Assembly (NCBI GenBank): GCA_964506505.1
Contig: CAZDKY010000047.1
Span: forward strand, 721-64,720
Direction: 5' to 3'
Origin: an uncultured Syntrophomonadaceae bacterium
GTDB lineage: Bacteria; Bacillota; Dethiobacteria; DTU022
DNA length: 64,000 nucleotides
Shown here: positions 13,893-62,118 of the stretch, piece after piece
How positions within the stretch are numbered: the first letter of the stretch is position 1
How the letters are laid out: the number at the start of each line of letters is the position of its first letter
Made by a program: the position numbers and the translations under genes
The notes under the pieces: model-generated
The model's input: only the letters and a program-made list of their open reading frames with translations
What the model was told of the DNA's origin: nothing
Database searches by the model: none

Positions 13893-13893
13893 A

Positions 13894-31999: not shown

Positions 32000-33298
32000 A
32001 TGTGGAACCGGAAGTATGAAGCAATGGCTCGGGAACAACTCGAAAAGCTGCAGTTCCTCAGGTTAAAGCAAACGCTGGAGAGGGTATACCAGCTTGTCCC
32101 TTTTTACCGCCGGCGCTTTGAAAGTGTCGGCGCTGAACCCGGCGATATTCGCACTACTGCGGATCTGGCCAAACTGCCCTTTACGGTTAAAAACGACCTG
32201 CGTGACAATTACCCCTACGGCCTCTTCACGGTCGATCTGAACGAAGTGGTACGCGTTCATGCCTCCTCCGGGACAACGGGCATTCCGACCCTGGTGGGAT
32301 ACAATCGCCATGATTTGGATGTATGGGCTGAGCTGATGGCCCGCACCCTGACGGCCGCCGGGGGTAACAACGATTCGGTAGTACACGTCGCTTACGGTTA
32401 CGGCCTTTTCACCGGCGGACTGGGCGCCCACTACGGAGCGGAAAAAATAGGAGCCACCGTAATACCCATTTCGGGCGGGCAGACCAGGCGCCAGGTGCGG
32501 ATGATGCATGATCTGGGAGCTACCCTGCTGGCCTGCACTCCCTCTTATGCCCTTTACATCGCTGAGACCATGGATGAAATGGGCCTCTCTCCTGCCGACC
32601 TGAAGCTCCGCTCGGGTGTATTCGGTGCCGAACCCTGGTCTGATAACATGCGCCGGGTCATCGAGGAAAAGATGAAGATTGACGCCTATGATATTTACGG
32701 ACTGAGTGAAGTTATAGGGCCGGGAGTTTCCTTTGAATGCAGTGCCAAGGACGGGCTGCATATCAGTGAAGATCATTTCATTCCCGAGATCATTAATCCG
32801 CAGACGGGCGAAATTCTGCCGGACGGAGAGACGGGGGAACTGGTAATCACTTCTATCAGCAAGGAGGTGCTTCCGGTGGTCCGCTACCGCACCCGCGACA
32901 TTACTTCGTTAAATCATGAAAAGTGCGCATGCGAGCGGACTCATGTGCGAATGAAGAAGGTCAGCGGACGCAGCGACGACATGCTGATTATCAGGGGTGT
33001 AAACGTTTTCCCCTCCCAGGTAGAGAGCATCCTGCTCGATATCGGGGAAACAGAGCCGTACTATCAGCTCGTGGTTGACCGGATCGGCTCCCTGGATACC
33101 CTGGAGGTGCTGGTTGAAGTTTCGGATCGCATGTTCTCTGACCAGGTCAGGGGACTGGAAAGCCTGGAAAACCGCATCCGTACTGAGATCGACAACCTTC
33201 TTGGTATTTCCGCCGAAATCAAACTGGTGGAACCAAAAAGTATTCCCCGCAGTGAAGGCAAGGCCAAAAGGGTGATCGATAAACGCACTTTCAGTTAA
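32000..33298 (+). CDS. paaK: phenylacetate-CoA ligase family adenylate-forming enzyme (PaaK / F390-synthetase-like)
   Basis: [11 protein letters not shown] adenylation motif, PaaK-like length and domain order. Confidence 0.9.
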
Positions 33299-33446
33299 AA
33301 CTTAATCCTGAATGGTGATGATCAAATCCGCTGATTCAGGAATGACAATGCAATAAATTATTTCTCTACAGTTTAAAGACTGGCCATGAATTGTAAGAAG
33401 TAAATTAGATATACAAACAACCATAGAGGGAAAGGAGGCATTACCA

Positions 33447-33875
33447 ATGATCAAGCAGATTTCAGTCTTCCTCGAAAATAAATCGGGACGGCTGGTCAGG
33501 GTGGCCGAGGTACTCGGCCAGGCCGGGATAAATATCCGCGGCCTCTCAATCGCCGACACATCTGATTTCGGCATCCTTCGACTGATCGTTGACCAACCTG
33601 ACAAAGCGATAACCGAATTGAAGGACAAGGGTATTATGGCCACGGAGACCGAAGTAATCGCCATGGAGGTTCCCGACACACCCGGCGGCCTGGCGGAGGT
33701 GCTCAAGTACCTGGACGGGGCAAACATTAATATCGAGTATCTTTATTCGTTCATCGAAAAACCGACCAGTAACGCCATCATCATGATGCGTGTGGAAAGA
33801 ATTAACGACGCTCTGGACGTGCTGAAGAAAAAAGGCATTCCCATCGTTACCGGCGAGCGGATTTACAAGTTTTAA
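33447..33875 (+). CDS. ACT-domain protein
   Basis: Two ACT-like repeats (ISVFLENKSGRL...; MEVPDTPGGLAEVL...); commonly found between paaK paralogs in arylpyruvate fermentation loci. Confidence 0.8.
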   Translation: MIKQISVFLENKSGRLVRVAEVLGQAGINIRGLSIADTSDFGILRLIVDQPDKAITELKDKGIMATETEVIAMEVPDTPGGLAEVLKYLDGANINIEYLYSFIEKPTSNAIIMMRVERINDALDVLKKKGIPIVTGERIYKF

Positions 33876-33923
33876 TTCGTTCAAATCACTTCAGGCACCC
33901 TGAAACAACAGGAGTTGAAACAG

Positions 33924-35225
33924 ATGAATAACGATCAGCTAACCGCGGAAGAACGCCTTTCGCGGCAAAAACAGGGATTGGCAAAAGTTGTTAAGCATGC
34001 CTACAACAACAGCCCCTTCTACCGCCGCCTTTTCGATGCGGCCGGTCTGCATCCGGAAACGGTAGGGAGGCCGGAGAATTTCCATAAGCTGCCCTTCACC
34101 ACCAAGAACGACCTGCGGGGAACTTATCCCTATGGGATGGCAGCCGTGCCCCTGGACGATATTGTCCGCATTCACGCTTCTTCGGGGACAACAGGCAAAC
34201 CAATCGTGGCTGGATATACCAGGAGCGACCTTGATTACTGGGCCCAATCTGTAACCAGGATTTGCGAAATGGCGGGCGTGACAAAAAAGGATATTGCCCA
34301 GATCTCTTTTGGCTACGGTCTATTCACCGGGGGTTTTGGCCTGCACTACGGGTTGGAGAGGCTCGGGGCCACGGTGGTCCCTTTTTCCAGCGGCAACACG
34401 GAGCGGCAGCTGTCCCTGATGAAGGATTTTAAAACCACCGTCCTGGTGAGCACTCCCTCCTTCGCCATCTACATGGCCGAAACAGCCCGTGATCTCGGCT
34501 ACGACCCGCTTTCTTTCGGCCTGCGGATTGGCATGTTCGGCGGGGAACCCTGTTCCGATGCCATGCGAGAGGAAATTAATAAGCAGTGGGGTTTAAAGGT
34601 AACCAGCAATTACGGCCTGACCGAGGTGGTGGGACCGGGTATCTCAGGCGAATGCGGTCAACGGACGGGCATGCATATCCTGGATGATCTCTACTATCCC
34701 GAGATTATCAACCCGCAGAGCGGTGAGGTGCTGCCCCGGGGTGAAGCGGGAGAACTTGTGCTTACTCCACTTTTCAAGGAAGGTTTCCCGGTGCTGCGCT
34801 ACCGCACCGGTGACATCACCCGTATTGTGCCTGAGCCCTGTCCCTGCGGAAGGACTACGCCACTGATGGACTACATCACGGGGCGCAGCGACGACATGAT
34901 CATCATCAAGGGGGTCAACATTTTCCCCAGCCAGATCGAAGAGGTCCTGGCTTCTTTTCGGGAAGTATCGCCCCATTACCAGCTTGTTTTGCTCAAAGCC
35001 AAAGGATTTATCAAGGACCTGGAGGTGCAGGTGGAGCTAACCCAGGAAGGGTTTACCGACCGCTATAAAGAGCTTGAATTACTGGGCAACAGAATCCGGC
35101 AGCGCCTGCGTTCCACCCTTTCCATGTCCCCCCGGCTCAAGCTGATGGAGCCGAAATCTCTGGAACGGACCACCGGCAAGGCTAAACGGATCGTGGAAAG
35201 GGAGGTTTCGGATCTTGAAAAATAA
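33924..35225 (+). CDS. paaK: phenylacetate-CoA ligase family protein, second paralog
   Basis: [11 protein letters not shown] motif. Start set at the ATG at 33924 (AGGAG 9 nt upstream) rather than the TTG at 33915. Confidence 0.9.
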   Translation: MNNDQLTAEERLSRQKQGLAKVVKHAYNNSPFYRRLFDAAGLHPETVGRPENFHKLPFTTKNDLRGTYPYGMAAVPLDDIVRIHASSGTTGKPIVAGYTRSDLDYWAQSVTRICEMAGVTKKDIAQISFGYGLFTGGFGLHYGLERLGATVVPFSSGNTERQLSLMKDFKTTVLVSTPSFAIYMAETARDLGYDPLSFGLRIGMFGGEPCSDAMREEINKQWGLKVTSNYGLTEVVGPGISGECGQRTGMHILDDLYYPEIINPQSGEVLPRGEAGELVLTPLFKEGFPVLRYRTGDITRIVPEPCPCGRTTPLMDYITGRSDDMIIIKGVNIFPSQIEEVLASFREVSPHYQLVLLKAKGFIKDLEVQVELTQEGFTDRYKELELLGNRIRQRLRSTLSMSPRLKLMEPKSLERTTGKAKRIVEREVSDLEK

Positions 35226-36969
35226 ACGCGTTTTGATGACCGGAAATGAAGCTATAGCACGTGGAGCCTACGAGGGAGGAGTAACGGTGGGGACAGCCTA
35301 CCCGGGTACTCCGAGCACGGAAATCATGGAGACCCTGGCCCGTTACCCGGAGGTGGATTGCAACTGGTCAACTAACGAGAAAACGGCCCTGGAAACAGCT
35401 ATCGGGGCATCGATGGCAGGCGCCAGGGTACTGGTAGCGATGAAGCACGTTGGCGTCAATGTGGCCGCCGATCCGCTGATGACCCTATCCTACACCGGGG
35501 TGGGCGGCGGGCTGGTGCTTGTCTCGGCTGACGATCCGGGCATGCACAGCTCCCAGAATGAACAGGACAACCGCCACTATGCACGCTTCGCCAAGATCCC
35601 CCTGCTTGAACCGGCGGACAGTGAAGAAGCACGCGACTTCGTGATGGCCGGGCTAGCCCTGAGCGAAAAGTATGACACACCGGTGATGCTGAGGACGACT
35701 ACGCGAATCTCTCATTCGCGCAGCACCCTGGTGCCTGGAAAACGTCAGGGAAAAGAGGTCGTCGGGTTCCAGAAGAATCCGGCCAAGTATGTTATGCTGC
35801 CCGGATTCGCCCGCCAGCGCCACCCGCTGGTGGAAAAACGGCTGCTTGATCTGGGGACAGAAGCAGAGGTCAGCCCGCTGAACCGGATTGAAGAAGGCAC
35901 TAAAGAAGTGGGGGTAATCTGCAGCGGCGTAGCCTACCAGTATGCCCGTGAAGCCCTGCCGGAAGCCAGTTTTCTGAAGCTTGGTTTCAGCTACCCGCTG
36001 CCGGAAAAACTGGTGCGCCGGTTTGCCGCACAGGTAAAAGAAATTTTGGTGATCGAGGAACTTGATCCCTTCATTGAAGAACAGCTGCTGGCCATGAACC
36101 TGGAGGTGCCCGTACGGGGCAAAGAGATTTTCGGCTTACTTGGCGAACTGGGAACGGAGATAATCCGCGAGAAATTTCTCGGACAGAAGCTACAGCTTAT
36201 CCAGGGCAACGACAAAATCCCCGGGAGGCCGCCGGTAATGTGTCCCGGCTGCTCACACCGCGGCGTTTTCTATACCCTGCGCCGCCTGAAGGTAAACGTG
36301 ACCGGCGATATTGGCTGCTATACCCTGGGGGCATTAAAACCGCTTCAGGCTATTGATTCCTGCATCTGCATGGGGGCCAGCATCGGCACCTCCCTGGGTA
36401 TGGTCCGTGCCGATCCGTCAGCAGCAGGAAAAACGGTGGCCGTGATTGGCGATTCCACTTTTCTTCATTCCGGAATTACAGCACTGCTGGATGCTGTTTA
36501 CAACCGGGCCCCCATTACGGCTCTTATTCTTGACAACGGGATCACGGCGATGACCGGACACCAGCAGCACCCCGGAACTGGCCTTAACCTGAAGGGCGAA
36601 GAGGCCCCTGCTGTTGACCTGGAAAAACTCTGTCTCTCACTTGGTGTACGGAGGGTAACGGTGGTCGACGCTTTTGATTTAAAACGGGTCAAAGCAGTGA
36701 TCAAGGAAGAACTGGCCGCCACGGAACCATCGGTGATTATTGCCCGACGGCCCTGCATCTTCCTCCTTTCTTCTTTCGATGAGCCGCTTTATGTGGATGA
36801 GGAACTCTGCAACGGCTGCAAAGCCTGTCTGGCCCTGGGCTGCCCGGCCTTGAGTTTTAAGGACGACAAGGCCAGGATCAACCCGACAATATGCACAGGC
36901 TGCGGGCTTTGTGAACAGCTCTGCCGCTTTGATGCGATTAAATTCTCTGCGGAAAGGGCGGGTGAATAA
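35215..36969 (+). CDS. iorA: indolepyruvate:ferredoxin oxidoreductase alpha subunit (IorA)
   Basis: TPP-binding pyruvate-ferredoxin-oxidoreductase-like domains plus two C-terminal 4Fe-4S motifs (CNGCKACLALGCP, CTGCGLCEQLC); TTG start with an AGGGAGG RBS. Confidence 0.9.
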   Translation: MKNKRVLMTGNEAIARGAYEGGVTVGTAYPGTPSTEIMETLARYPEVDCNWSTNEKTALETAIGASMAGARVLVAMKHVGVNVAADPLMTLSYTGVGGGLVLVSADDPGMHSSQNEQDNRHYARFAKIPLLEPADSEEARDFVMAGLALSEKYDTPVMLRTTTRISHSRSTLVPGKRQGKEVVGFQKNPAKYVMLPGFARQRHPLVEKRLLDLGTEAEVSPLNRIEEGTKEVGVICSGVAYQYAREALPEASFLKLGFSYPLPEKLVRRFAAQVKEILVIEELDPFIEEQLLAMNLEVPVRGKEIFGLLGELGTEIIREKFLGQKLQLIQGNDKIPGRPPVMCPGCSHRGVFYTLRRLKVNVTGDIGCYTLGALKPLQAIDSCICMGASIGTSLGMVRADPSAAGKTVAVIGDSTFLHSGITALLDAVYNRAPITALILDNGITAMTGHQQHPGTGLNLKGEEAPAVDLEKLCLSLGVRRVTVVDAFDLKRVKAVIKEELAATEPSVIIARRPCIFLLSSFDEPLYVDEELCNGCKACLALGCPALSFKDDKARINPTICTGCGLCEQLCRFDAIKFSAERAGE

Positions 36970-36970
36970 G

Positions 36971-37564
36971 GTGAACAGTAAATTGAACAAAACAGCTAAA
37001 AAAGATATTTTAATTGCCGGTGTCGGGGGGCAGGGTACCATCCTGACGGGGCGAGTTATTGCCGCCCTGGCTATGTCTGAGGGATTAGACGTGAAAACGG
37101 CCGAAACCCACGGTATGGCCCAGCGGGGCGGCAGCGTGATCACTCACGTGCGGATGGGCAAAAAAGTTTATTCACCGCTTATCCCGCAGGGTGACGGCGA
37201 CATTCTCCTTTCCTTCGAAAAGCTGGAAGCCCTGCGCTGGCTTCCCTTCCTTTCGCCGGAGGGGACGGTCATCGTCAATACGCAGGAGCTTGATCCTATG
37301 CCTGTACTGACCGGCGAGACGGAGTATACGGATGGCATCCTAAAAGAAATTGAGAGCAAAGCGGCCAGTCTCATTGCCGTCGATGCCCTCAATATTGATC
37401 CGGTGAAAAAAAATCCGCGGGTTGTCAACACCTTTCTGCTGGGTATCCTGGCCCGTTTGATGCCCTTCGCCAGAGAAAAGTGGCTGCAGATCCTGGAACA
37501 GGAAATCAAGGCCGCCCTGGTTGATATCAACAGGCAGTCCTTTGAGGCCGGATGGCATTATTAA
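36971..37564 (+). CDS. iorB: indolepyruvate:ferredoxin oxidoreductase beta subunit (IorB)
   Basis: ILIAGVGGQGT motif; GTG start immediately after the iorA stop. The track ORF at 36911 would overlap iorA by 60 nt. Confidence 0.85.
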   Translation: MNSKLNKTAKKDILIAGVGGQGTILTGRVIAALAMSEGLDVKTAETHGMAQRGGSVITHVRMGKKVYSPLIPQGDGDILLSFEKLEALRWLPFLSPEGTVIVNTQELDPMPVLTGETEYTDGILKEIESKAASLIAVDALNIDPVKKNPRVVNTFLLGILARLMPFAREKWLQILEQEIKAALVDINRQSFEAGWHY

Positions 37565-37727: not shown

Positions 37728-39224
37728 CTATTTGGCGGACAGGGGTCCCTGTGGGAGTTCACTGATCCCGAGCTCCTTCATTATTGTGCCGGTAGATCTG
37801 TCGAGCTCTTCTTCCCTTTCTTTGGCCATGGGTGCCGGGATGTGGCTGCCGCGGATCTCTTCAACCTGTTCCTGAGCACGCTGGAAGGCATTCTTTCTAC
37901 CTTCATCTTCCCAATTCTTGCGGTCATTACGGTCTATGATCGCCGAGGGGAGGTATGGCTCTTTTTTAAACCATTTCAAGGTGTGCTCCGATTCAAGATA
38001 GTTTCCGCCGGGACCGAGTTCTTCGATCACATCAACAGCCAGCGATTCAGCAGAGCAGTCGATACCGCGGTGCATGCGCAGGGCCATGCCGCAGACTTCG
38101 TTGTCGATGGCCAGTTTCTCTAGGCTGAAAGTATTGACAAAATCAAGGCCTCCCGGTCCGGAAATCATGTTGATCCCGGCCAGCTGAGCGATGATTCCGC
38201 TCATTCCTGTTTCTATACCGGCCTGGGTATCGATGGTTTTCGAATCGCTGAGGGCTGCGTAAGTGTGGGTCGGCAGCCCAAAGTATTTACCCATCTGGGA
38301 GTAAGCAGCGGCGATCATGGTCGCTTCGACGGCGCTGAAGGGCGTTGTCCCAAAGCGCATATCAAACTGCACCGGGGCCCCGCCGTAGACCACCCGGGCA
38401 CCTGGATTGACGCACTGGGCCAGGACCAGGCCACTGAGGGTTTCCACAGTATGCAGGAGCAGAGATCCGCCCAGGGTGACAGGGCTGCCCGCTCCAGGCA
38501 TGGGCAGGGCTACCGTTTCCAGGGGCAGGTCATTGCGGGCACAGTCGATGATATTCTGGGCACTGATATGGGTCCACTTCAGGGGCGGCGACGGGCAGAT
38601 ATCAAATACGGCGCGCGGTTTTTCGCGCAACTCGTCGAGTCCGCCTACCGCTGCGGCGAGCATGTCGCGCATGTGAATGATCCCGGGGACACTGAAGGCC
38701 CCGGTGATGATCGCTTTCGGCGAATTCTTCAGGCAGAGATAGAGGCGGTAACTGTCAACAATCGACTTGGGCACATCGTAGCAAACCACAGAAGTCGACT
38801 GGAGGCGAATATTATCCAGGGCATCGTTAACCCTGCTGATGTCCACCATGTCTTTTGAACTGGTCTGACGGACAGTCTCGCCGTCCGATTCCATGAACTT
38901 AATCATGGATGAGCCGGGATCGAAATAGACATTGTCGTCGCTCATATCGGCAGCCAGTGAACCGTTGCGGTCATAAATTTTAAAGGAAGGCGGGGCCTGA
39001 TTAACGGCATCGTCGACCATGCGTGTGCTTATCCTGACCACCTTTTTCGCAGAATCGATTTTTGCCCCGTGATCCCGCAGGATATTGAGGGCCTCTTCCG
39101 ACTCGAACTTGACCCCGGTATTTTCGAGGACATGCAGAGCCTTCTGGTGAATAATTTTGATCTGTTCATCGCTGATCAGGCGCAGTTTGGGTTGGCTATT
39201 AAAACAGTATCTTTTTGGTTCCAT
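37728..39224 (-). CDS. MttB-superfamily methyltransferase without pyrrolysine (quaternary-amine/glycine-betaine:corrinoid methyltransferase-like, COG5598)
   Basis: About 498 aa and fully open with no internal amber. N-terminus EQIKIIHQKALHVLENTGVKFESEEAL is typical of the MttB TIM-barrel family. Ends in TAG. Start set at the ATG at 39224. Confidence 0.8.
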   Translation of the reverse strand: MEPKRYCFNSQPKLRLISDEQIKIIHQKALHVLENTGVKFESEEALNILRDHGAKIDSAKKVVRISTRMVDDAVNQAPPSFKIYDRNGSLAADMSDDNVYFDPGSSMIKFMESDGETVRQTSSKDMVDISRVNDALDNIRLQSTSVVCYDVPKSIVDSYRLYLCLKNSPKAIITGAFSVPGIIHMRDMLAAAVGGLDELREKPRAVFDICPSPPLKWTHISAQNIIDCARNDLPLETVALPMPGAGSPVTLGGSLLLHTVETLSGLVLAQCVNPGARVVYGGAPVQFDMRFGTTPFSAVEATMIAAAYSQMGKYFGLPTHTYAALSDSKTIDTQAGIETGMSGIIAQLAGINMISGPGGLDFVNTFSLEKLAIDNEVCGMALRMHRGIDCSAESLAVDVIEELGPGGNYLESEHTLKWFKKEPYLPSAIIDRNDRKNWEDEGRKNAFQRAQEQVEEIRGSHIPAPMAKEREEELDRSTGTIMKELGISELPQGPLSAK

Positions 39225-39277
39225 TTTGATTGCCTCCTTTCTCAAAAAAGAGCGGCAATAAGTTAATAAGTTAATAC

Positions 39278-39313
39278 ACAGGGTAGCTGAATGATAAACA
39301 GGGTAGCTGAATG
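39278..39313. repeat. 16-bp direct repeat ACAGGGTAGCTGAATG x2 (20-bp spacing) between kamA and the mttB-family gene
   Basis: Seen in sequence; the second copy ends at the kamA TAG stop. It is preceded by AAGTTAAT x2. Confidence 0.6.
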
Positions 39314-40573
39314 CTAGTTTTTTCCTTTTTTGATATCCGGTTCCATGGCCACGGCCCGGCCGTTAAGCAGGCCGGCAACGCCCAGTTCGTACTGAGTATG
39401 TTTGCCGCCGCAGAGCGGGCAAACTTTGTCAGGATCGACCATGCGGTGCGGTTCGGTGTAGGTATAGGTACCGCCTTCAAAATTGCGCAGGACTACCCGG
39501 TATGGTGACTGGCTGATCAGGTACTGGGGCATGACAGGGATCTTGCCGCCTCCGCCGGGAGCGTCGACAACAAATGTAGGCACGCCCATGCCAGTGGTGT
39601 GCCCGCGCAGGTTTTCGATGATCTCCAGGCCGGCGGCCACGGAGGTGCGAAAATGCTCGATACCCTGCGAGAGGTCGCACTGGTAAACATAGTACGGTTT
39701 GACCCGGATTTTAAGCAGTTCATGGCTCAGCTTTTTCATCACCTGCGGGCAGTCGTTGACTCCGGCCAGCAGTACGGACTGGTTGCCCAGGGGGATACCG
39801 GCATCAGCCAGGCGTGCGCAGGCAGCCGCCGATTCAGGGGTCACTTCTTTCGGGTGATTGAACTGAACGTTGATGTAGACAGGATGATATTTCGCCAGCA
39901 GCTTACAGAGTTCAGGGGTGATGCGCTGGGGCATAACTACCGGAGTACGGGTGCCGAAACGAATTATTTCAACGTGCTCGATGGAACGCAGTTCTTTTAG
40001 CAGGTATTCAATTAGCTCATCGCCGATCAGGAGGCCGTCACCGCCGGAAAGAAGGACGTCGCGCACCACGGGAGTGTGGCGGATGTAGTCGATGGCAGCA
40101 TCAATCTGCTCACGGGTGCGGGCCTTATCGGTGGCTCCGGCCAAACGCCGACGGGTGCAGTGGCGGCAGTACATGGAGCACTGGTCAGTAACCAGGAATA
40201 GAACACGGTCCGGGTAACGGTGGGTCAGTCCGGTAACCGGCGAGTCTACATCTTCATGCAGGGGATCGGTCATGTCCGATACCGAGCTGTGGGTCTCCAG
40301 CGCGGTGGGTACTGCCTGTTTGCGCACCGGGCAATTGGGATCATCCGGATCGATCAGGGTCGCATAGTAAGGAGTAATAGCCATGCGGAATTTCTGAAGG
40401 CATTTTTCAACGCCCTCCGCTTCTTCATCGCTCAGATCAATTAGCTGTTTCAGCTTATCAAGGGTGGTAATGCGGTTGCGAACTTGCCAGCGCCAGTCAT
40501 CCCATTGTTCGGGAGTGACATCCTTCCAGAGTTCTATTTCACGGTAATCTCTCATTGTCAATTCTCCTTTCAA
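39314..40573 (-). CDS. kamA: L-lysine 2,3-aminomutase (radical SAM)
   Basis: Near-colinear with B. subtilis KamA (EIELWKDV..., CSMYCRHCTRRR radical-SAM cluster motif, PLP region); ends in TAG. Confidence 0.92.
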   Translation of the reverse strand: MKGELTMRDYREIELWKDVTPEQWDDWRWQVRNRITTLDKLKQLIDLSDEEAEGVEKCLQKFRMAITPYYATLIDPDDPNCPVRKQAVPTALETHSSVSDMTDPLHEDVDSPVTGLTHRYPDRVLFLVTDQCSMYCRHCTRRRLAGATDKARTREQIDAAIDYIRHTPVVRDVLLSGGDGLLIGDELIEYLLKELRSIEHVEIIRFGTRTPVVMPQRITPELCKLLAKYHPVYINVQFNHPKEVTPESAAACARLADAGIPLGNQSVLLAGVNDCPQVMKKLSHELLKIRVKPYYVYQCDLSQGIEHFRTSVAAGLEIIENLRGHTTGMGVPTFVVDAPGGGGKIPVMPQYLISQSPYRVVLRNFEGGTYTYTEPHRMVDPDKVCPLCGGKHTQYELGVAGLLNGRAVAMEPDIKKGKN

Positions 40574-41017
40574 TTATTTCAAATGGAGTTCGTATGCTAC
40601 CGAATCGGTGGTGAAACCGTGCTTTTCGTAAAGATTGCGCGCTTCTTTGTTAACATTCAGGGCAGTCAGCTCCAGACGGCAAAGATTATGCTCTCTGGCA
40701 ACTTCAATAATGCGTCTGATCAATAGATCAGCCAACCCGCGGCAGCGATAAGCCGGATCGACAACAACATCTTCGACGTGACCGTACCATTGGCCGTTCC
40801 AGGTTGAAAAGTGTCCCATGTGCAGGCTGGCAGTACCGGTAACCACTCCCTCGATGAGGATGATAAAGATGAGGACCCTCTGGGGATGTCCCATGCAGTA
40901 TTGGAAACTGCGCTTCAACATTTCCGGTGAAACCTCTTTGCGATAAAAGTCGAGGAGTATTTTCCAGAGGCGGCATACCGCTGTTTCATCTGCTGCTGTG
41001 GCCAATCGTATCTCCAT
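40574..41017 (-). CDS. GNAT N-acetyltransferase, putative beta-lysine N-acetyltransferase (AblB-like by context)
   Basis: GNAT motifs (YRCRGLADLLIRR, YEKHGF). Its stop abuts the kamA start with no gap, the same pairing as ablA/ablB and yodP/kamA. At 147 aa it is shorter than the characterised AblB/YodP. Confidence 0.6.
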   Translation of the reverse strand: MEIRLATAADETAVCRLWKILLDFYRKEVSPEMLKRSFQYCMGHPQRVLIFIILIEGVVTGTASLHMGHFSTWNGQWYGHVEDVVVDPAYRCRGLADLLIRRIIEVAREHNLCRLELTALNVNKEARNLYEKHGFTTDSVAYELHLK

Positions 41018-41263
41018 ATTTTATTGTTCCCTTTCCGGTCCGTTATTCGCTACCTTTATTTTAACAAATAAAAGATCATTTAGTAAATAAGATTAGATTC
41101 GTTAATTGCCTTATCCTGCTTTTATATTTTTATTAATTATCCGGAAAAATTTCTTTGTCAGAAATAGTTTCCTGCAAATTTGTTTTCAGAAAAAATTGAG
41201 GTAAAATGTTTTGTTTAGATTTATCAATAATTTTAAAAAACCGCTATTAAACCGCTTATACCG

Positions 41264-41294
41264 AAAAAAAACCGGCCCGAAGGCCGGCTTTTTA
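41264..41294. terminator. bidirectional rho-independent terminator
   Basis: A8-CCGGCC-cgaa-GGCCGG-T5; lies downstream of nhaC. Confidence 0.65.
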
Positions 41295-41354
41295 AACTAC
41301 TTTTTTTGTCCCGCTTATAACCGCTACTTCGCTTTTTACGGTTTTAGGCGGCAA

Positions 41355-42926
41355 TTATTTCTTCTGACTTGCTTCGATTGATTCGGCATCCGCGGTCGTT
41401 CTGCCCACCAGACGGACAAAGATGATCAGGACAATGATCCCGAGGACTATCGAAATCAACGGATGTACGCCCAGGCCGGCCGGGATAAAGCCAAATATAC
41501 CGGACACTATCGCCCCGGTGAGGGCATAGGGAATCTGGGTGCGCACATGGTCGATATGGTCCGATCCGGCACCGGTGGAAGAAAGAATGGTGGTGTCGGA
41601 TAGCGGCGAGCAGTGGTCGCCGAAGATCGCTCCGGTCAGCACGGCAGCCATGGTGGGGATAATAAATTGTTCCCCGCCGAGGGCAAAGGCAACCGGAACA
41701 GCCAGAGGAATGACGATCCCCATTGTGCCCCAGGAGGTGCCCATGGCAAAGGCCATGAAACAGGAAATGATGAAGATCAGGAGGGGCATAACCGCTATGC
41801 CTAATCCTGTCTTTTCGACGACACTGACCAGGTACTCAGCGGCTCCCAGTTCACCGGAGACATAGCTGAGAGACCAGGCCAGAACCAGGATGATCAGGGC
41901 CGGGAAAACCGACTTGGCCCCGTTGATCAGGGTATCGATAGCCTGCTGCAGGGGAACTATCCTCTGGGCGAGGACCATAACGATTGTTACAAGGGCTCCC
42001 AGGCTGGAAGACCAGAGCAGCACGACTGTGGAGTCGGCATTGCCGAAAGCTTCCATGATCCCCACTTCTCCCCCGCCTCCATGGATATAGAGGCCGACGA
42101 AGGTGGCGATAATAATCACCAGGACAGGGATGACGAAGTTGTACCAGCGCATCGGTGTGCCTTCTTCCGGCTGGAGGACTGCCGTGTCGGTGGCCGACAG
42201 CGGCTCCGCTCCTTCACGCAGCAGCTGACCGGTGGTGCGGGCCCTTACTTCAGCATTGTACATGGGACCGAAGTCCTTCATGGTAATAGCCAGGATCAGC
42301 ACCAGGGCAATGGCAAAGATGCTATAAAAACGGTAGGGAATGCTCTGCAGGAAAATCAGGTAAACCGGCACTTCTTCCATACCGATTGCGGCATAGCCTT
42401 CCCCGATAACCCCGAGCTCGAAACCGATCCAGGTCGAAATGAGAGCTACTGTAGCAATAGGCGCCGCGGTGCTGTCAATGATATAAGATAGCTTTTCACG
42501 GGATACTTTCACCGCGTCAGTAATGGGGCGGGCAGTGTTGCCGGCAATAATACAGCTGGAGTAGTCATCAAAGAAGATGATCATCCCCATCAGCCAGGCG
42601 GCAATCATCCCGCCGCGGGCGCTTTTCACTTTCTTGGTCAGGGCGTCGGCGATTGCCTGAGCCCCGCCGGCCTTGGTTACCAGACCAAGGGTTCCCGCGA
42701 TAATCATGGTAAAAATAAGGATCGCTGCATACCATGGGTCGGCAGCGCTTTCCAGCATGTAGGTATCAACAGAACGGAAAAAGCCGGTAATCGGATTCGC
42801 ATGCAGGAAGGATGCTCCAAGCCAGACGGCAATAAAAAGGGAAATAATTACCTGGCGGGTTGCAATAGCCAGTACAATAGCCAGGAGCGGCGGTAAAATA
42901 GATAAAAATCCATATTCCATAAACAA
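41355..42926 (-). CDS. nhaC: NhaC-family Na+/H+ antiporter
   Basis: 523-aa polytopic membrane protein with an NhaC-like N-terminus and topology. Confidence 0.8.
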   Translation of the reverse strand: MFMEYGFLSILPPLLAIVLAIATRQVIISLFIAVWLGASFLHANPITGFFRSVDTYMLESAADPWYAAILIFTMIIAGTLGLVTKAGGAQAIADALTKKVKSARGGMIAAWLMGMIIFFDDYSSCIIAGNTARPITDAVKVSREKLSYIIDSTAAPIATVALISTWIGFELGVIGEGYAAIGMEEVPVYLIFLQSIPYRFYSIFAIALVLILAITMKDFGPMYNAEVRARTTGQLLREGAEPLSATDTAVLQPEEGTPMRWYNFVIPVLVIIIATFVGLYIHGGGGEVGIMEAFGNADSTVVLLWSSSLGALVTIVMVLAQRIVPLQQAIDTLINGAKSVFPALIILVLAWSLSYVSGELGAAEYLVSVVEKTGLGIAVMPLLIFIISCFMAFAMGTSWGTMGIVIPLAVPVAFALGGEQFIIPTMAAVLTGAIFGDHCSPLSDTTILSSTGAGSDHIDHVRTQIPYALTGAIVSGIFGFIPAGLGVHPLISIVLGIIVLIIFVRLVGRTTADAESIEASQKK

Positions 42927-43195
42927 TACCTCCTAATACTTAGTTGTTCATCATTTAAGATCAAACGTTTGCTGAACCTTTAGAAAGATTTAGTCCCCCT
43001 TTCCGATCCAGTACACTTATTTTTTTATTTCTTCATTGCTGCTCATATTCCTGCATACCGGAGCTTGGAATATACCAAAAATGGACGATAAAAGTTATAA
43101 TGGTAAAGAACGAAATAAAATATGCCGAACCCGAGTCTTCCCGATAGCCTGGATTAACCGGTATACAGGGTCACAGGGGTTAATCGGGATACAGA

Positions 43196-43795
43196 ATGGT
43201 GGTTACAGAAATGCCCTGGGGATTCAACTGGCTCGATGCAGCAATCGCGGCTTTTGTCCTTATTTTTATTATTGCAGGTCTAACGGCCGGTTTGATTAAA
43301 AGCGCTTTCACGATCGTCGGTCTTTTAACCGGCCTGTTCCTGGCTGCAAAATATTATGCGTCTGTGGGGAACCTGATCGCCGGGTATATCGACATGCCCC
43401 GTTTTGTTGCTGATACGGTTGGTTTTTTAACCATTTTTCTCGCCACGGCCGTGATCATTCATACTCTGGGGCATGCCGCAGCAGCGGTAACCCGCTTTCA
43501 GCCGCTGAAGGTACTTGACAGGTTCGGCGGTCTGGCCATCGGCCTGTTATTCGGTCTGGCAATATGCGGCTTAATTTTGATCCTGCTGGCCGCTTTACCA
43601 ATCTATGCCAATTTCCCTGATCAGATCGAAAAATCACAGCTAGCCCTGCCGATAATGGAGTTAACCCGTGACCTCTTTGAACAATTCGACAATTATCTGC
43701 CTTTCAACCTTCCGCTGACGCGTGACAGGGTGACGGAGGATCTGACAACTTTTTCGTGTCAGTTCGACAGGCAGATGCACCATATGGACGGATAG
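43196..43795 (+). CDS. cvpA: CvpA-family membrane protein
   Basis: N-terminus FNWLDAAIAAFVLIFIIAGLTAGLIKSAF and four transmembrane segments resembling colicin V production protein; ends in TAG. Confidence 0.75.
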   Translation: MVVTEMPWGFNWLDAAIAAFVLIFIIAGLTAGLIKSAFTIVGLLTGLFLAAKYYASVGNLIAGYIDMPRFVADTVGFLTIFLATAVIIHTLGHAAAAVTRFQPLKVLDRFGGLAIGLLFGLAICGLILILLAALPIYANFPDQIEKSQLALPIMELTRDLFEQFDNYLPFNLPLTRDRVTEDLTTFSCQFDRQMHHMDG

Positions 43796-43806
43796 ATAGT
43801 TATTGG

Positions 43807-44451
43807 TTAACTTTTTAGCAGTTCCAGGACTTTATTTACCCCTTCAGCGGCATCTTCGGCATAGGCATCAGCACCGATCTTGTCAGCCCAGCGCTGGGTG
43901 CAAGGGGCACCGCCGATTATGGTTTTATATTTTTCCCGCATGCCGCGCTTGCGAAGCTCTGCCTCGAGCTTCTCCTGGTTGGGCATGGTCGTGGTCAGCA
44001 GGGCGCTGGTGCCGATCACATTTGCACCGTTCTTTTCAGCTTCCTCAATGATTTTTTCTACCGGGACATCCCGGCCCAGATCGATTACCTCCACACCCTG
44101 GGTCTGGATCAGGGCCAACGCAATGCCCTTGCCAATGTCGTGCACGTCTCCTTCCACGGTGGCGAATACCATCTTGCCCACTGTTTTGGACGCCTTGTCT
44201 TCCAGGGCGGAATTAAGAATCTCGACCGCTGCTTTCATCGCTTCCGAAGCGAGGATCATTTCCGGCAGGAAAACTTCTCCCCTGCTGAAGAGGTCCCCGA
44301 TTTCCCGGATGCCCACGCTGTAGCCATCAGTCAGTACTTTCACCGGATCGAGGCCTTCATCGAGGGCTTGTTCAGCGACGGCAACTGCCTTTTCCTGATC
44401 GATATCGAGAATTGATTGTTTGGCTTCATTTAAAATTGTTTTTAGGCTCAA
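43807..44451 (-). CDS. mtbC: cobalamin-binding corrinoid protein for a methylamine methyltransferase (MtbC-like)
   Basis: B12-binding_2 helical cap followed by a Rossmann B12-binding domain with the DxHxxG motif (EGDVHDIGKG); 20 nt downstream of mtbB. Confidence 0.8.
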   Translation of the reverse strand: MSLKTILNEAKQSILDIDQEKAVAVAEQALDEGLDPVKVLTDGYSVGIREIGDLFSRGEVFLPEMILASEAMKAAVEILNSALEDKASKTVGKMVFATVEGDVHDIGKGIALALIQTQGVEVIDLGRDVPVEKIIEEAEKNGANVIGTSALLTTTMPNQEKLEAELRKRGMREKYKTIIGGAPCTQRWADKIGADAYAEDAAEGVNKVLELLKS

Positions 44452-44470
44452 ATCAGAACACTCCTTGTTT

Positions 44471-45859
44471 TTAGAATCCGGCTTTTTCTTTGAAAAGCTC
44501 GACCGAGTTTATAGTGATACCCAGCACCCGGGCTATATTTATTTTGGCTTCGATTCCCTTGGGGGCCTGGTTGAGCTCAAAAGGCCGACCCAGGTTCAAT
44601 TTCTTCCGTATTTCAAACATACGGTCCGAGTCGCTCAAATCGATGGGCTCGACACCCAGTTTTTCGGCGACATACTTTTTGGCTTCGTCAATTTTCATGC
44701 TTTTCGCCAGCTGCATCCGCAGAACCAGATCTCCGGCTGTGCGTATGCCGCTCATACATGAAGAAAGAGTATGGGCCACTTCGAGGCTGAAAGGATCGCC
44801 CACGCCTATCTACAATCCGTCGGCTTTGCCGATTTCAATCAGGGCCTTGTCGGCCCTGGTGACGGCATCAATCGGCGGAATCTCGGTCATCGGTACTCCC
44901 CCGACGCCCATGCCCACATTAATATGAAGAGGTATTTCCGCCACTTCGCTGCAGGCCTTGATAAAGGTCACCGTGCGGGCCAGGTTCCAGGGAAAAGACT
45001 TGCTGGTGTTGGTATTGACAACCGGCCCGAAGATATTGGCACCTGCTTTCTCGGCCAGCTTTACCTGCTTGTGGGGATAGAGCCCGGCAATCCTCGTGCC
45101 TGCGTATTCCAGCTTGCCGTGCATGCCGAGGACGAATTCTCCGGCAGCGCCGAACTCCACACCCAGGTTGGGATATTTCTCCTTGATCTGCTCGGTAGCC
45201 AGCAGGCTGGCCTGGTAATCGGCATCGCCGGAAGCGCCACAGGTATCAAGGTTAATCCCGTCAGCCCCGGCAGCGTACATCTCCCCGGCTACAAAAACCA
45301 TATCGCGGACGGCATGTTCTACCGCTTCTTCCTGGGCAGCCCTTGCCTCGTCGATTTTAGCCATGGGCAGCAGTTCCGACCAGTTGTCAACCGGGCCGTC
45401 CGGCTTGGTATAAAGACCGAGGTTGGGCATGGAACCGTAGAGAACCGGCATCACCGCATTCAGCTGGGCCAGTTCCATAACCGGCGTTTCGTTATGCACG
45501 ATCTGTTTGACCGCCTTGTAGCTGTAATCCATATTGCCGATATCAACCGAATCGGCGCCCAGAACTTTCTCACTGATCATCACCGAGGTGGAACGCTCCA
45601 TGGCGATATTGGCATGATAGGTCATCTTGCAACTGCCGGAATCGGAGGTGTTGACCACTTCACGACCCCGCTCGACCCCGACGATGTTTCCGGGCATGGT
45701 AACGATTTCGAAAATGTAATCCATTTCTTCCGCAGTCAGTTCGGGTATCTTCCCGCGGTCGGCGGCATCTTTAACACCCTGGAGTATATCTTCCTTGATT
45801 TCCTCCGCGCTCATATAGACGCCCGAGCCGTCGCCCATGCGTGTAAAATATTTATCCAA
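44471..45859 (-). CDS. mtbB: dimethylamine:corrinoid methyltransferase MtbB, pyrrolysine-containing, with an in-frame UAG at 44812..44810
   Basis: Track ORFs 44810..45931 and 44471..44803 are in the same frame, separated only by TAG and two codons (...IGKADGL-TAG-IGVGDPFSLEV...). The joined 462-codon product matches MtbB along its length: N-terminus (M)DKYFTRMGDGSGVY resembles the archaeal MATEYALRMGDGKRVY; GMGVGGVPM is conserved near the amber position; the UAG falls at about codon 350, against about 356 in Methanosarcina MtbB. TTG start at 45859 with AAAGGAGGG 8 nt upstream. A corrinoid-protein gene follows. Confidence 0.8.
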
Positions 45860-49429: not shown

Positions 49430-50350
49430 TCACCGGGGCGGCACGGTCGGTTTTCCCCCGGGGCCGGTACAGCGGGCACGGCCCATGATTACGACAGCCA
49501 GGCCGGCCAGAACAAGGGCTGCCCCGGGGAAAAAGAAGGGTTCCGGCTGCTCCCTGAAAATGAGCCAGGCCAGAACGGCAGCTCCGATGGGCTCACCGAG
49601 GAAAAGCAGGGATACGAGAGTAGCACTGTAGCGGTTGAGAGCCCAGTTGAAAATACTGTGGCCAAAAATAGTGGGGATAACGGCAAGGGCGGCAAAGAGC
49701 AGATAATCGGTGCAGGGGTAAGGATAAAAGGGAATCCCACCAAGCAAAGCCCCGGCAGTCAGCATCAGGGCAGCAGTGCCGTAGACAATCACCGTGTAAG
49801 AAAGGGTCGATATCATTGGGCGGAGAGCCCGACCTACCAGCAGGTAGCCAGCCATCATCACTGCCCCGGTCAGAGCCATAAAATCACCGGGTAGTCCACC
49901 GTAAGCCAGGCGGAAACCACCGCCGCTGATCATAACAATTCCGGCCAAAGCAACCAGGGAACCGAAAAAGGCAGCGGGTGATATTTTTTCACCAAAGAAC
50001 AGCCTTGAGGCAATGAGGACAAAGATTGGGTGAGTGGAAACAAAGAGAACGGAATGGGCTACCGTGGTCAGCTGCAGGGAGGCAATCCAATAGTAAAAAT
50101 GACCGGCTAGAAATAGACCGCCGATGAAGGCCAGGAGGATCTCAACTCTTCCTAAGCGCCTTAATTCCCTTTTTTTAAAGACAATGGCCGGAGGAAGAAT
50201 AATCAGGGTAGCAATGATCAACCGGCCTGCGGCGATAATCAGGGCCGGGGCAGTAGCCAGGCGGACAAATATAGCGCTGAAGGACACGGTTACAACAGCT
50301 GCAGCCAGAACTGCCGCCGCGCGGGCTGAAAACCGATCACTGCCGGTCAT
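49430..50350 (-). CDS. DMT-superfamily (EamA) transporter
   Basis: Ten predicted transmembrane segments organised as two EamA repeats. Confidence 0.8.
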   Translation of the reverse strand: MTGSDRFSARAAAVLAAAVVTVSFSAIFVRLATAPALIIAAGRLIIATLIILPPAIVFKKRELRRLGRVEILLAFIGGLFLAGHFYYWIASLQLTTVAHSVLFVSTHPIFVLIASRLFFGEKISPAAFFGSLVALAGIVMISGGGFRLAYGGLPGDFMALTGAVMMAGYLLVGRALRPMISTLSYTVIVYGTAALMLTAGALLGGIPFYPYPCTDYLLFAALAVIPTIFGHSIFNWALNRYSATLVSLLFLGEPIGAAVLAWLIFREQPEPFFFPGAALVLAGLAVVIMGRARCTGPGGKPTVPPR

Positions 50351-50715
50351 GATCTTGACACCACTTTCACGATCTGTCCCGCCTCCTCTTTCTGCTCTTT
50401 ATTCGCCTGCCTTTTATCCTTCCCTGCCTGCACCTTTGATAAATTTTTCGGTCATCAGTTAAGCAATACAGGTAACATACTGAATGTAATTATTTTTCGG
50501 CATTTAAAGATCCCTCTCCCAATGTTATTGTATATAATGATCAGTGAAAGGTCGTGTTATCCAGGAACCATTGTAACCCATTTTTTTCTTTGGGTTTCAG
50601 GAAAAATGAGAAAACCCTTTCAATTTTAACAGTCAAGATGGATAAGCGTGATAATAAAACAGCCTGTCCATGGATGCATTCCGGTCATGAAAGGGTAGTC
50701 CGCAGGGGGTGCAAA

Positions 50716-51924
50716 ATGAATTTCAACGAGATCCTTGATACGGTAACAAACAAGGAGGTCTATGAACTGACGACCAATCTGGTGAATATTCCCAGCTACA
50801 CGGGCCTGATTAACCAGGAGCTGGCAGTAGCCCGCTACATCAAAGAGTTTTTTGAATCCGAAAACATCGAGGTCTTTTTTCAAGACCCGCTGCCGAACAG
50901 GCCCAATGTAATTGCCGTAATCAGGGGCTGCGGCAAAGGAAAGTCGCTGATGCTGAGCGGCCATCTTGATACGGTGCCACCTTACAATATGACCGAAGAT
51001 CCTTTCTCGGGAAAGATCGAAGGGGGAAAACTTTATGGCAGGGGCAGCTGCGATATGAAAGGGGCCCTGGCCTGCATGATGACGGCCATGGCAGCCCTGC
51101 GGCGAAGCGGGACGAGGCTGGCCGGTGATCTTATTTTCGCCGGTGTAATCAACGAGGAACAGCAGAGTGAAGGTACCGAATACATTGTGCGGAACGGGCC
51201 GGGTGCCGATGCAGCCATCGTTGGCGAGCCGACAGGCATGGATATCGCTGCCGGACACCGCGGTCTGGAATGGATAGACATTACCGTGATCGGAAAAACC
51301 ACGCATGGCGGAACTCCCACCGAAGGTGTCAACGCTATTTCCAAGGCGGCCGAACTGATTTACAAAATCGAGACTGAATTGATCCCTAAATTCAAAAATC
51401 GCCGACACCCATTGATAGGCGAGCCGCTTCTCAATTTCGGGGTGATCAAGGGCGGCGACCAACCCAGCAGTGTGGCTGGGTTCTGCCGGATTTCAATCGA
51501 CCGGCGCTGGCCCCCGCTGGAAACATTTAGCGGGATCATGGAGGAACTTGAAGAAATCATCGGGGAGCTGCGAAGTGAAGATCCCAATTTCCGGGCCGAG
51601 GTCAAACGCTACTTCGAGGGCTCTGATATGATGTTGCACAAACCGCTGGAAATAGACCTTAATCACCCGTTAGTTGAAACGCTGCAAAAAACCCTGCGGA
51701 TCACAGGCCAGAAAGAACCGCAAATTGTTTCTTTCCCGGCCTGGACCGACGCTTCTCTGCTAAGCAATTACGCAGGCATTCCCAGCGTAGTCTGCGGCCC
51801 CGGGTTCCTGAAAGACGCCCACACCGAAAACGAGCACGTCCATCTCAGCCAGCTGGAAGAAGGATACAGAGCTTACACTTTGGGTGCTCTCGATTTCTGT
51901 GGAATGGAAGAAAACATTGACTGA
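50716..51924 (+). CDS. M20-family metallopeptidase (ArgE/DapE-like deacylase)
   Basis: GHLDTVPP metal-site motif with an M20 dimerisation domain. Start set at the ATG at 50716 (MNFNEILD), since the track ORF adds an implausible 54-aa leader. Confidence 0.85.
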   Translation: MNFNEILDTVTNKEVYELTTNLVNIPSYTGLINQELAVARYIKEFFESENIEVFFQDPLPNRPNVIAVIRGCGKGKSLMLSGHLDTVPPYNMTEDPFSGKIEGGKLYGRGSCDMKGALACMMTAMAALRRSGTRLAGDLIFAGVINEEQQSEGTEYIVRNGPGADAAIVGEPTGMDIAAGHRGLEWIDITVIGKTTHGGTPTEGVNAISKAAELIYKIETELIPKFKNRRHPLIGEPLLNFGVIKGGDQPSSVAGFCRISIDRRWPPLETFSGIMEELEEIIGELRSEDPNFRAEVKRYFEGSDMMLHKPLEIDLNHPLVETLQKTLRITGQKEPQIVSFPAWTDASLLSNYAGIPSVVCGPGFLKDAHTENEHVHLSQLEEGYRAYTLGALDFCGMEENID

Positions 51925-52026: not shown

Positions 52027-52073
52027 CCCGGCAGGGTATCTATTCTTCTTCGGCCGGCCTGCGGGTTTTTTTT
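52027..52073 (+). terminator. rho-independent terminator between convergent genes
   Basis: Stem CCCGGCAGG ... CCTGCGGG followed by T8. Confidence 0.5.
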
Positions 52074-61753: not shown

Positions 61754-62118
61754 TGGCTGAAAAAGAGATGATCTGCATTCTCTGCCCCCTGGGCTGCAGG
61801 ATGCAGGTAAAAGAAAAGGAAGATCAACCCGGTGAACTGTCGATGCGCGGACATAAATGCAAGCAGGGTAAAACTTACGCCCACCAGGAGTTTTACAACC
61901 CCACCCGCACTCTTACTTCAACTGTGGTCATCCACAATGCCACCCTGCCACGACTGCCGGTTAAAACTGACCGGCCTATCTCAAAAAACCTGATAATGAA
62001 AGCGGTCGAAGAAATAGCCCGGGTGGAAGTGGAAGCGCCGGTGGAAATGGGCGACGTGATCATCGAAAACCTGCTGGGTACCGGCAGTAACGTTTTAGCC
62101 ACCCGCAGTTTGCAATAG
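61753..62118 (+). CDS. DUF1667-domain protein (third component of GlpA-like/FAD oxidoreductase systems)
   Basis: 121 aa with CxxC...C motifs (CILCPLGC, HKCKQG); ATG overlaps the upstream TAA (TAATG); ends in TAG. Confidence 0.7.
   Translation: MAEKEMICILCPLGCRMQVKEKEDQPGELSMRGHKCKQGKTYAHQEFYNPTRTLTSTVVIHNATLPRLPVKTDRPISKNLIMKAVEEIARVEVEAPVEMGDVIIENLLGTGSNVLATRSLQ

Follow-up and report, generated by a model that had tools for sequence, protein, structure and literature searches.

The window analysed here, a 64,000-nt stretch of DNA (G+C content 52.4%) from an uncultured Syntrophomonadaceae bacterium, contains within 8 kb (37728..45859) two sets of genes for methylamine-type methyltransferases together with genes of lysine metabolism. 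On the minus strand lie genes for a pyrrolysine (Pyl)-type methyltransferase of the dimethylamine (DMA) class (mtbB), its corrinoid protein (mtbC), an NhaC-family transporter, a GNAT acetyltransferase, a lysine 2,3-aminomutase (kamA) and a non-Pyl member of the MttB superfamily (the mttB-like gene); a cvpA gene lies among them on the plus strand. The initial annotation described the methyltransferase components as scattered. However, the same set (MtbB-MtbC, NhaC, KamA and MttB-like) recurs together in related and unrelated genomes, and in several orders of anaerobic Bacillota both methyltransferase sets stand beside genes of lysine breakdown. The identities assigned to the genes of this 8-kb stretch are close to certain.

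The mtbB gene (44471..45859) comprises 462 codons, including a single in-frame UAG (44810..44812; GGA TTG TAG ATA GGC GTG GGC GAT) in the protein context DGL-UAG-IGVGDP. Its product scores 638 bits on PF09505 (Dimeth_Pyl; residues 3-458) and 531.3 bits on the NCBIfam equivalog model TIGR02368 (dimeth_PyL), which has a cutoff of 369.1. A PYLIS-like element begins at the UAG (44713..44812) and matches Rfam RF02509 (PYLIS_2) over the full model length (47.2 bits, gathering score 36, E = 3.6e-8), and mtbB orthologs of 71-86% identity show the same UAG split. A search for MtbB homologs returned bacterial relatives only, 67-100% identical. Starting 19 nt past the mtbB stop, mtbC (43807..44451) encodes a protein with B12-binding (PF02310) and B12-binding_2 (PF02607) domains, the DxHxxG motif DVHDIG at residue 102 and a TIGR02370 (pyl_corrinoid) score of 226.9 against 215.3 bits. 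The UAG, the PYLIS_2 match and the family scores thus bear out the earlier assignment of mtbB-mtbC, which is predicted to encode a pyrrolysine-dependent methyltransferase and its corrinoid carrier. The pair is like MtbB/MtbC of Methanosarcina in its canonical UAG site, PYLIS-like element, adjacent cognate corrinoid gene and curated-family score; in contrast to the Methanosarcina Pyl methylamine systems, its host is a bacterium and its linkage is to lysine genes and a non-Pyl MttB gene rather than to mtt/mtm or methyl-CoM methyltransferase genes. MtbC is the sole corrinoid protein in the window and is the likely methyl carrier for both methyltransferases.

The mttB-like gene (37728..39224) encodes 498 aa and starts with an ATG at 39224 after an AGGAGG ribosome-binding site. 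Its product matches PF06253 with 289.7 bits (cutoff 25; residues 8-482), and the gene is fully open with no internal stop, so that its original placement among the non-Pyl members stands. A Pyl-type trimethylamine (TMA) methyltransferase was rejected, as there is no in-frame UAG and the score on the TMA methyltransferase equivalog TIGR02369 (421.9 bits) is under the cutoff of 525. Also rejected was an amber codon masked by a sequencing error, which the initial annotation had named as a way in which its reading might fail: the codon equivalent to Pyl334 is CTC (Leu325, 38250..38252), three changes from TAG, and this Leu is invariant, as are Ser105 and His320, in 18 orthologs of 53-79% identity. 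In phmmer searches the protein matches MtgB (2QNE, E = 1e-70) and Pyl MttB (7XCL, 3e-67), with about 31% identity to each. An AlphaFold2 model (pLDDT 69.8, pTM 0.75; active-site loops under pLDDT 50) aligns in Foldseek with 2QNE, 9YCE and 7XCL at TM-scores of 0.70-0.74. Sequence and model are those expected of a TIM-barrel MttB-superfamily enzyme without pyrrolysine.

Its description as MtgB/MtpB-like does not extend to the active site. A crystallographic and mutational study of MtgB assigned Y97 and F356 to cation-pi contacts with glycine betaine and R312 and H348 to its carboxylate (PMC13080624). The same study reports R312 to be conserved in every member of known function (MtgB, MtcB, MtyB, MtpB and MthB); each of these acts on acidic quaternary amines (PMC13080624). 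Y97, R312, H348 and F356 align with S105, H320, S355/G356 and V363 of the 498-aa protein. With all four glycine-betaine-binding residues replaced, an MtgB identity was rejected, and the enzyme is very probably not an MtgB; because these residues are replaced and the Ser and His are invariant, it is placed in an uncharacterised 'Ser105/His320' subfamily with a different binding site. Many metagenomic homologs, the most distant of them only about 40% identical, also carry the Ser/His signature, which predicts a subfamily without the glycine-betaine/carboxylate-binding residues of the characterised members, from which it is set apart by way of the published statement on R312 (PMC13080624). MtpB, MtcB, MtyB and MthB of Eubacterium limosum keep the R312-equivalent Arg, whereas His320 takes its place here, a comparison that follows that published description and an alignment to MtgB only (PMC13080624). 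The nearest corrinoid protein also differs, being the pyrrolysine-system MtbC here and the shared MtqC in E. limosum. With MtgB of Desulfitobacterium hafniense (2QNE/9YCE) the enzyme has in common the superfamily, the fold, a Leu at the pyrrolysine position and, presumably, methyl transfer to a Co(I) corrinoid protein; its genomic partner is kamA, in contrast to the dedicated MtgC corrinoid protein of MtgB.

As the initial annotation stated, the mttB-like gene directly follows kamA and a GNAT gene on the same strand, and comparative linkage (below) indicates that this position is meaningful. The three genes form a separate operon: the stop of the first, GNAT (40574..41017; 147 aa), abuts the start of kamA (39314..40573; TTG at 40573 or ATG at 40555), and no terminator is predicted in the 89-nt spacer between kamA and the mttB-like gene (39225..39313), which contains a partial tandem duplication and an AGGAGG site. 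A 37-nt unit of this spacer (CATTCAGC.ACCCTGTGTATTAACTTATTAACTTAT), itself with an inner TAACTTAT repeat, is present twice in a syntenic locus (L001, 9440..9575), and its first copy is truncated in the window.

KamA scores 595.3 against 525.4 bits on TIGR03820 (lys_2_3_AblA), falls below the cutoffs of the glutamate and arginine aminomutase models and gives a full-length alignment with 2A5H, the enzyme of Clostridium subterminale (622 bits). Both proteins have the CxxxCxxC motif, Asp293, Asp330 and Lys337; from the structure of that enzyme we take Asp293 and Asp330 to bind the epsilon-ammonium group of lysine and Lys337 to be the pyridoxal phosphate lysine. KamA is accordingly predicted to be a true lysine 2,3-aminomutase. 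The GNAT protein (PF00583, 75 bits) has as its closest solved relatives polyamine and thialysine N-epsilon-acetyltransferases, with weak similarity (E = 2e-10 to 2e-9), and its NCBIfam matches at E <= 1e-5, all far under their cutoffs, do not include the beta-lysine acetyltransferase family; it is presumed to be a (beta-)lysine N-acetyltransferase. AblA/AblB of methanogens and yodP-kamA of Bacillus subtilis serve N-epsilon-acetyl-beta-lysine synthesis, with the acetyltransferase gene beside the lysine 2,3-aminomutase gene. The window shares this adjacency and an aminomutase that passes the lys_2_3_AblA model, but its GNAT is a 147-aa protein without a match to a beta-lysine acetyltransferase family, and a methyltransferase gene stands in the same operon. 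GNAT lies directly upstream of kamA in nearly all saline/soda-lake relatives (about 20 loci), whereas the kamA clusters of other lineages have no GNAT gene.

A transporter gene (41355..42926; 521-523 aa; PF03553, 211 bits), with its likely start at an ATG at 42920 after an AGGAGG site, is located between the two methyltransferase sets and immediately precedes the GNAT-kamA-mttB-like operon; the earlier remark that no permease was nearby therefore needs correction. A canonical NhaC Na+/H+ antiporter was rejected as its identity (TIGR00931, 41.6 against 370 bits), only the broad family PF03553 being matched. NhaC-family genes also stand beside kamA/MttB-like genes in Desulfitibacter and Zhaonella and beside MtbB genes in two further loci (L061/L062); from its context alone, the transporter is a candidate substrate importer. 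Its gene is followed by a predicted intrinsic terminator (41264..41288; GCCGGCC-TTCG-GGCCGGT, then T8), a palindrome that independently received a terminator-like score, and the AT-rich region of about 250 nt beyond it contains a sigma-70-like site (TTTACT-18-TAAAAT, 41087..41058). The cvpA-family membrane protein gene (43196..43795, plus strand; PF02674) is interposed yet syntenic, occupying the same place in six other loci (L001, L006, L007, L008, L021 and L054). A further transporter gene, of the EamA family, is present at 49430..50350.

Pfam scans of essentially all long open reading frames in the 64-kb window found no URO-D/MtbA-type or pterin-binding, MtqA-type methyltransferase, no RamA-type activase and no pyl genes, and the window contains no tRNA genes, tRNA-Pyl included. 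No lysine riboswitch or other known RNA was found upstream of the transporter or GNAT gene, the PYLIS element being the sole Rfam match in the window, and no sigma54 promoter motif occurs in the two intergenic regions; matches to that motif in the whole window are fewer than expected by chance. The absence of a methyl-acceptor partner and activase, pointed out for the 8-kb stretch, thus extends to the whole window, but it is not remarkable. E. limosum encodes its substrate-specific MttB homologs, MtqC and MtqA/RamQ in separate clusters (PMC8604678), so that the absence of a second methyltransferase, an activase or a dedicated corrinoid protein nearby is ordinary; the window follows the same logic as that quaternary-amine system, with a substrate-specific enzyme encoded away from shared partners (PMC8604678).

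The window proteins were used to scan 41 genome loci and 80 metagenome loci. Protein searches recovered the identical 498-aa sequence in Mahoney Lake bins and more than 100 orthologs of 53-79% identity, almost all in metagenome-assembled genomes (MAGs) of Bacillota. The clade of at least 58% identity has 31 informative loci, those with enough flanking sequence, and 25 of them have kamA no more than 3 kb from the mttB-like gene, compared with 2 of 39 among homologs of 34-57% identity (Fisher p = 3e-11, a significance that is overstated since the loci are not phylogenetically independent). In an identity-based UPGMA clustering, these loci all fall in one group of 38. Many of the kamA-linked loci come from one saline/soda-lake family labelled Syntrophomonadaceae, in which iorAB and paaK are also syntenic. 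In the window, two phenylacetate-CoA-ligase-like genes, an ACT-domain gene and iorA/iorB (32000..37564, plus strand) converge on the mttB-like gene; this set is probably an inherited neighbourhood and not part of the module, because it is syntenic in the saline/soda-lake relatives only. Taken alone, the saline/soda-lake subset could reflect inheritance rather than function. The decisive evidence for linkage is therefore that from other lineages, where flanks and gene order differ.

In the complete genome of Zhaonella formicivorans the order is KamD-KamE-Kal-Kce-MttB-like (59% identity, WP_227765438.1)-NhaC-KamA-CoA-transferase A/B-MtbB(Pyl, 74%)-MtbC-MttB(Pyl)-class-III aminotransferase. A Peptococcaceae MAG (L017) has sigma54 activator-KamD-KamE-Kal-Kce-amino-acid permease-KamA-MttB-like-CoA-transferase A/B-MtbB(Pyl)-MtbC-MttB(Pyl). 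The order KamA-MttB-like-MtbB(Pyl)-MtbC-MttB(Pyl)-aminotransferase is found in a metagenome contig (L048) and a Dehalobacterium MAG (L130), downstream of a full fermentation set or of a sigma54 activator gene, and in another locus (L058) kamA-kdd-kamD-kamE diverges from a sigma54 activator gene that is followed by MttB-like-MtbB-MtbC. In Desulfitibacter BRH_c19 and D. alkalitolerans, MtbB(Pyl, 73-78%)-MtbC directly precedes KamD-KamE-Kdd-Kal-Kce-CoA-transferase-thiolase. In the BRH_c19-type organism the far end of the region holds a sigma54 activator, LysO, NhaC, KamA, MttB-like (62%) and aminotransferase genes, both methyltransferase sets being on one 488,761-bp contig; the 800 nt that separate kamA from the mttB-like gene in Desulfitibacter conceal no further gene. 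Thus, in at least five families, both methyltransferase sets of the window have orthologs linked to genes of lysine catabolism, which the methyltransferase genes either bracket or are interspersed with. No MtmB-type gene occurs in any annotated locus.

The lysine fermentation cluster of anaerobes, reportedly described by Kreimeyer and colleagues in 2007, consists of kamA, kamDE, kdd, kce, kal and CoA-transferase genes. The full set is present in the related loci, in many of which a sigma54 activator and an NhaC-family or APC permease are encoded as well, whereas the window keeps kamA only. We know of no methyltransferase or corrinoid-protein genes in the classical clusters.

Within the lineage of the window, two forms of the locus alternate. 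Some loci have MtbB-MtbC upstream, as the window does. Others, found in saline/soda-lake relatives (L003, L006, L010-L012, L014, L016, L055, L056, L059 and L088), are extended, with the order GNAT-KamA-second non-Pyl MttB paralog-corrinoid-MttB-like, often followed by a second corrinoid gene, and have no MtbB-MtbC in the upstream sequence available. The second paralog is 27-30% identical, fully open and reads GGFATGAK at the Pyl region. That the two forms complement each other suggests a joint role of MtbB-MtbC and the kamA operon in the window. Some extended loci also contain duplicated NhaC genes, a sigma54 activator gene and a second kamA copy.

A trio of non-Pyl MttB, Pyl-MttB and Pyl-MtbB recurs in many Bacillota loci (L133, L134, L060-L062, L073, L046-L048, L130 and L131). 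One corrinoid protein usually accompanies it, a sigma54 activator or a family-5 solute-binding protein does so in some cases, and an MtmB-type gene is never nearby; D. alkalitolerans contains two or more sets of this kind. In the lysine clusters, the Pyl-MttB paralogs share 44-46% identity with Methanosarcina MttB. In these paralogs (L017, 15101..16558; L046, L047, L048, L064 and L130), NFSKGV corresponds to CFGTGV of Methanosarcina, so that Ser-Lys replaces Gly110-Thr111, a pair that is 100% conserved in 66 Pyl-MttB sequences (PMC9842639); the Pyl-MttB of L061 and L073 keep the Gly. The Ser-Lys change is compatible with an altered substrate and proves nothing.

Because the kamA linkage persists without GNAT in lysine fermenters, the common denominator of these loci is lysine or beta-lysine metabolism and not acetyl-beta-lysine. 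A functional tie of the methyltransferase genes to lysine or beta-lysine metabolism is likely. The overall best explanation, its proposed mechanism included, is that the 8-kb stretch forms one conserved lysine-linked functional module, a reading held with somewhat less than even confidence. Methylated lysines are proposed as substrates because they are the only compounds that would join a quaternary-amine methyltransferase, Pyl methylamine methyltransferases and a lysine-specific aminomutase; we tentatively suggest an N-methylated lysine as the methyl donor, with N-epsilon-trimethyllysine as the best guess. Trimethyllysine is a quaternary, dimethyl-lysine a tertiary and monomethyl-lysine a secondary amine. 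By analogy, these classes would match the non-Pyl MttB homologs, Pyl-MttB and Pyl-MtbB, respectively. The absence of MtmB would be explained as well, since three demethylations leave lysine, a primary amine without a methyl group.

In the lysine-linked module the NhaC-family transporter would import an N-methylated lysine, and the non-Pyl enzyme would take one methyl group off the quaternary nitrogen and load it onto Co(I)-MtbC. MtbB would demethylate the secondary-amine stage (N-epsilon-methyl-lysine) or free DMA; in relatives, the intermediate stage would fall to a Pyl-MttB paralog or to a second non-Pyl paralog. A methyl-corrinoid:tetrahydrofolate methyltransferase, encoded elsewhere as in E. 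limosum (PMC8604678), would unload methyl-MtbC, and an activase, also encoded elsewhere, would keep it active. The lysine set free would be converted to beta-lysine by KamA. In the saline-lake lineage GNAT would then N-acetylate beta-lysine, giving an osmolyte or a catabolic or protected intermediate, and in the other lineages beta-lysine would be fermented through KamDE, Kdd, Kce and Kal. The window carries the enzymes for the first and last steps of the proposed three-step series. In its full form, in which the non-Pyl MttB, Pyl-MttB and Pyl-MtbB with one corrinoid protein strip the three methyl groups of trimethyllysine in turn and release lysine, the scheme is speculative and on balance unlikely.

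Several points weigh against the lysine-linked module. The linkage counts overstate independence, because many of the kamA-linked loci come from one family, and six of the 31 informative loci of the clade have no kamA. The window itself lacks an enzyme for the tertiary-amine step as well as kamDE, kdd and kce, and its GNAT suggests that this organism uses beta-lysine anabolically, as an osmolyte. The trio is also found without lysine genes. The Pyl-MttB paralogs of the lysine clusters retain Met249, Pyl334 and Tyr364, so that use of DMA or TMA is possible, and MtbB, which passes the curated DMA cutoff, may simply use DMA. To our knowledge, no pyrrolysine enzyme accepts an amine larger than TMA. 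As an observation on the six kamA-less loci, one of them (L047, 9410..9904) encodes, directly upstream of the mttB-like gene, a 164-aa fragment with the C-terminal domain of lysine 2,3-aminomutase, which suggests a decayed kamA in a lineage where the linkage is otherwise lost.

A rather unlikely alternative is that these are ordinary methylated-amine genes without a shared pathway with the lysine genes: a quaternary-amine enzyme unrelated to lysine and a methyltransferase for DMA (in relatives, TMA), brought together by a shared sigma54/nitrogen regulator, by a cobalamin dependence shared with lysine 5,6-aminomutase or by co-transfer as an amine-catabolism island. MtbB scores above the DMA equivalog cutoff, sigma54 activators flank many clusters, KamE is cobalamin-dependent and similar trios exist away from lysine genes, all as this alternative predicts. 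The occurrence of various MttB paralogs next to genes for proline racemase and ornithine cyclodeaminase, which suggests islands that serve several substrates, also fits it. However, the methyltransferase genes are interleaved gene by gene in lysine-fermentation operons in at least three orders, the linkage is kept in the window without kamDE, a sigma54 activator or a sigma54 motif in the two intergenic regions, and MtmB is missing throughout the annotated loci. Genes for proline racemase and ornithine cyclodeaminase/mu-crystallin beside other MttB paralogs were noticed in L016 (3181..5840 and 15657..16655) and downstream in L047/L048; they hint that different MttB paralogs may each have partner enzymes for the amino acid set free, with (hydroxy)proline betaines as one example.

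Osmolyte turnover, the idea of the initial annotation, is improbable as the best reading of the locus. The non-Pyl enzyme would demethylate a common betaine (glycine betaine, proline betaine, carnitine or similar) within an osmoadaptation regulon that alternates between betaines taken up from outside and N-epsilon-acetyl-beta-lysine made by the cell, and MtbB-MtbC would be an unrelated DMA system. For acetyl-beta-lysine synthesis one would expect just such a pair, a GNAT gene abutting that of a true lysine 2,3-aminomutase, and the GNAT gene is confined to the lineage of the window. The source lake, Mahoney Lake, is saline (PMC4846661), and many of the GNAT-carrying relatives are labelled as soda-lake sediment MAGs. 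Yet all four MtgB betaine-binding residues are replaced, including the Arg common to the characterised enzymes (PMC13080624). Moreover, the kamA linkage is present without GNAT in Zhaonella, Dehalobacterium, Peptococcaceae and Desulfitibacter, where kamA belongs to lysine fermentation, and in Desulfitibacter and Zhaonella the MtbB-MtbC pair, too, is joined to lysine-fermentation genes.

Least probable is that the methyltransferase acts after KamA, on a methylated or quaternary (acetyl-)beta-lysine or in reverse to make a betaine-type solute: the mttB-like gene comes last in the GNAT-kamA-mttB-like order and its subfamily lacks the usual carboxylate-binding Arg, but gene order differs between lineages, KamDE needs a free epsilon-amino group and consumes beta-lysine in the fermentation clusters, and we know of no methylated beta-lysine natural product or reverse MttB-family reaction.

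Several other genes were noticed in the window. A 633-aa fusion (52072..53973, minus strand) joins an acetyl-CoA hydrolase/transferase, resembling butyryl-CoA:acetate CoA-transferase, to a C-terminal GNAT domain resembling the protein acetyltransferase Pat; an ArgE/DapE-family deacylase gene (50554..51924) adjoins it. At 58976..62118 (plus strand), a DUF1667 gene comes after one for a 925-aa fusion protein, in which a DAO-type FAD oxidoreductase is combined with a BFD [2Fe-2S] domain and a pyridine-nucleotide-disulphide oxidoreductase. The region 12255..17282 (minus strand) encodes a DAO-family protein and two amine-oxidase-like flavoproteins, and a 1087-aa fusion of mannose-1-phosphate guanylyltransferase/mannose-6-phosphate isomerase and phosphomannomutase lies at 17439..20702 (minus strand) in a glycosyltransferase-rich region. 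Proteins identical to those of the window are recorded as both 'delta proteobacterium ML8_D' and 'Firmicutes bacterium ML8_F2'. The ML8_D bin has a G+C content of 45.2% (PMC4846661), compared with 52.4% for the window, and a Bacillota MAG (L001) is syntenic with the window and 97% identical; the contig is probably a Bacillota contig mis-binned into the deltaproteobacterial bin.

A literature search found nothing relevant linking MttB-family or DMA methyltransferases to aminomutases or to trimethyllysine; its coverage was incomplete and novelty is unproven. The linkage would set a corrinoid methyltransferase system of known type in a metabolic context that is new for it. For thousands of non-Pyl MttB homologs no substrate is known, those assigned so far being glycine betaine, proline betaine, carnitine, gamma-butyrobetaine and phosphocholine, and embedding in lysine operons gives a concrete substrate hypothesis, methylated lysines. 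It is testable, as two cultured species carry the linkage: Z. formicivorans, which is validly named and assumed to be culturable, and D. alkalitolerans. If the hypothesis is true, pyrrolysine enzymes would for the first time be known to accept an amine that exceeds TMA in size, which may widen the chemistry of such enzymes beyond C1 amines and would explain the presence of mtbB and mttB without mtmB in many Bacillota. Trimethyllysine is a precursor of carnitine and of TMA; the module would be a new anaerobic route of methyl-lysine catabolism and a sink for trimethyllysine. If the methyl-lysine reading fails, the linkage still marks a large Ser/His subfamily of MttB homologs with a binding site unlike that of the characterised members.

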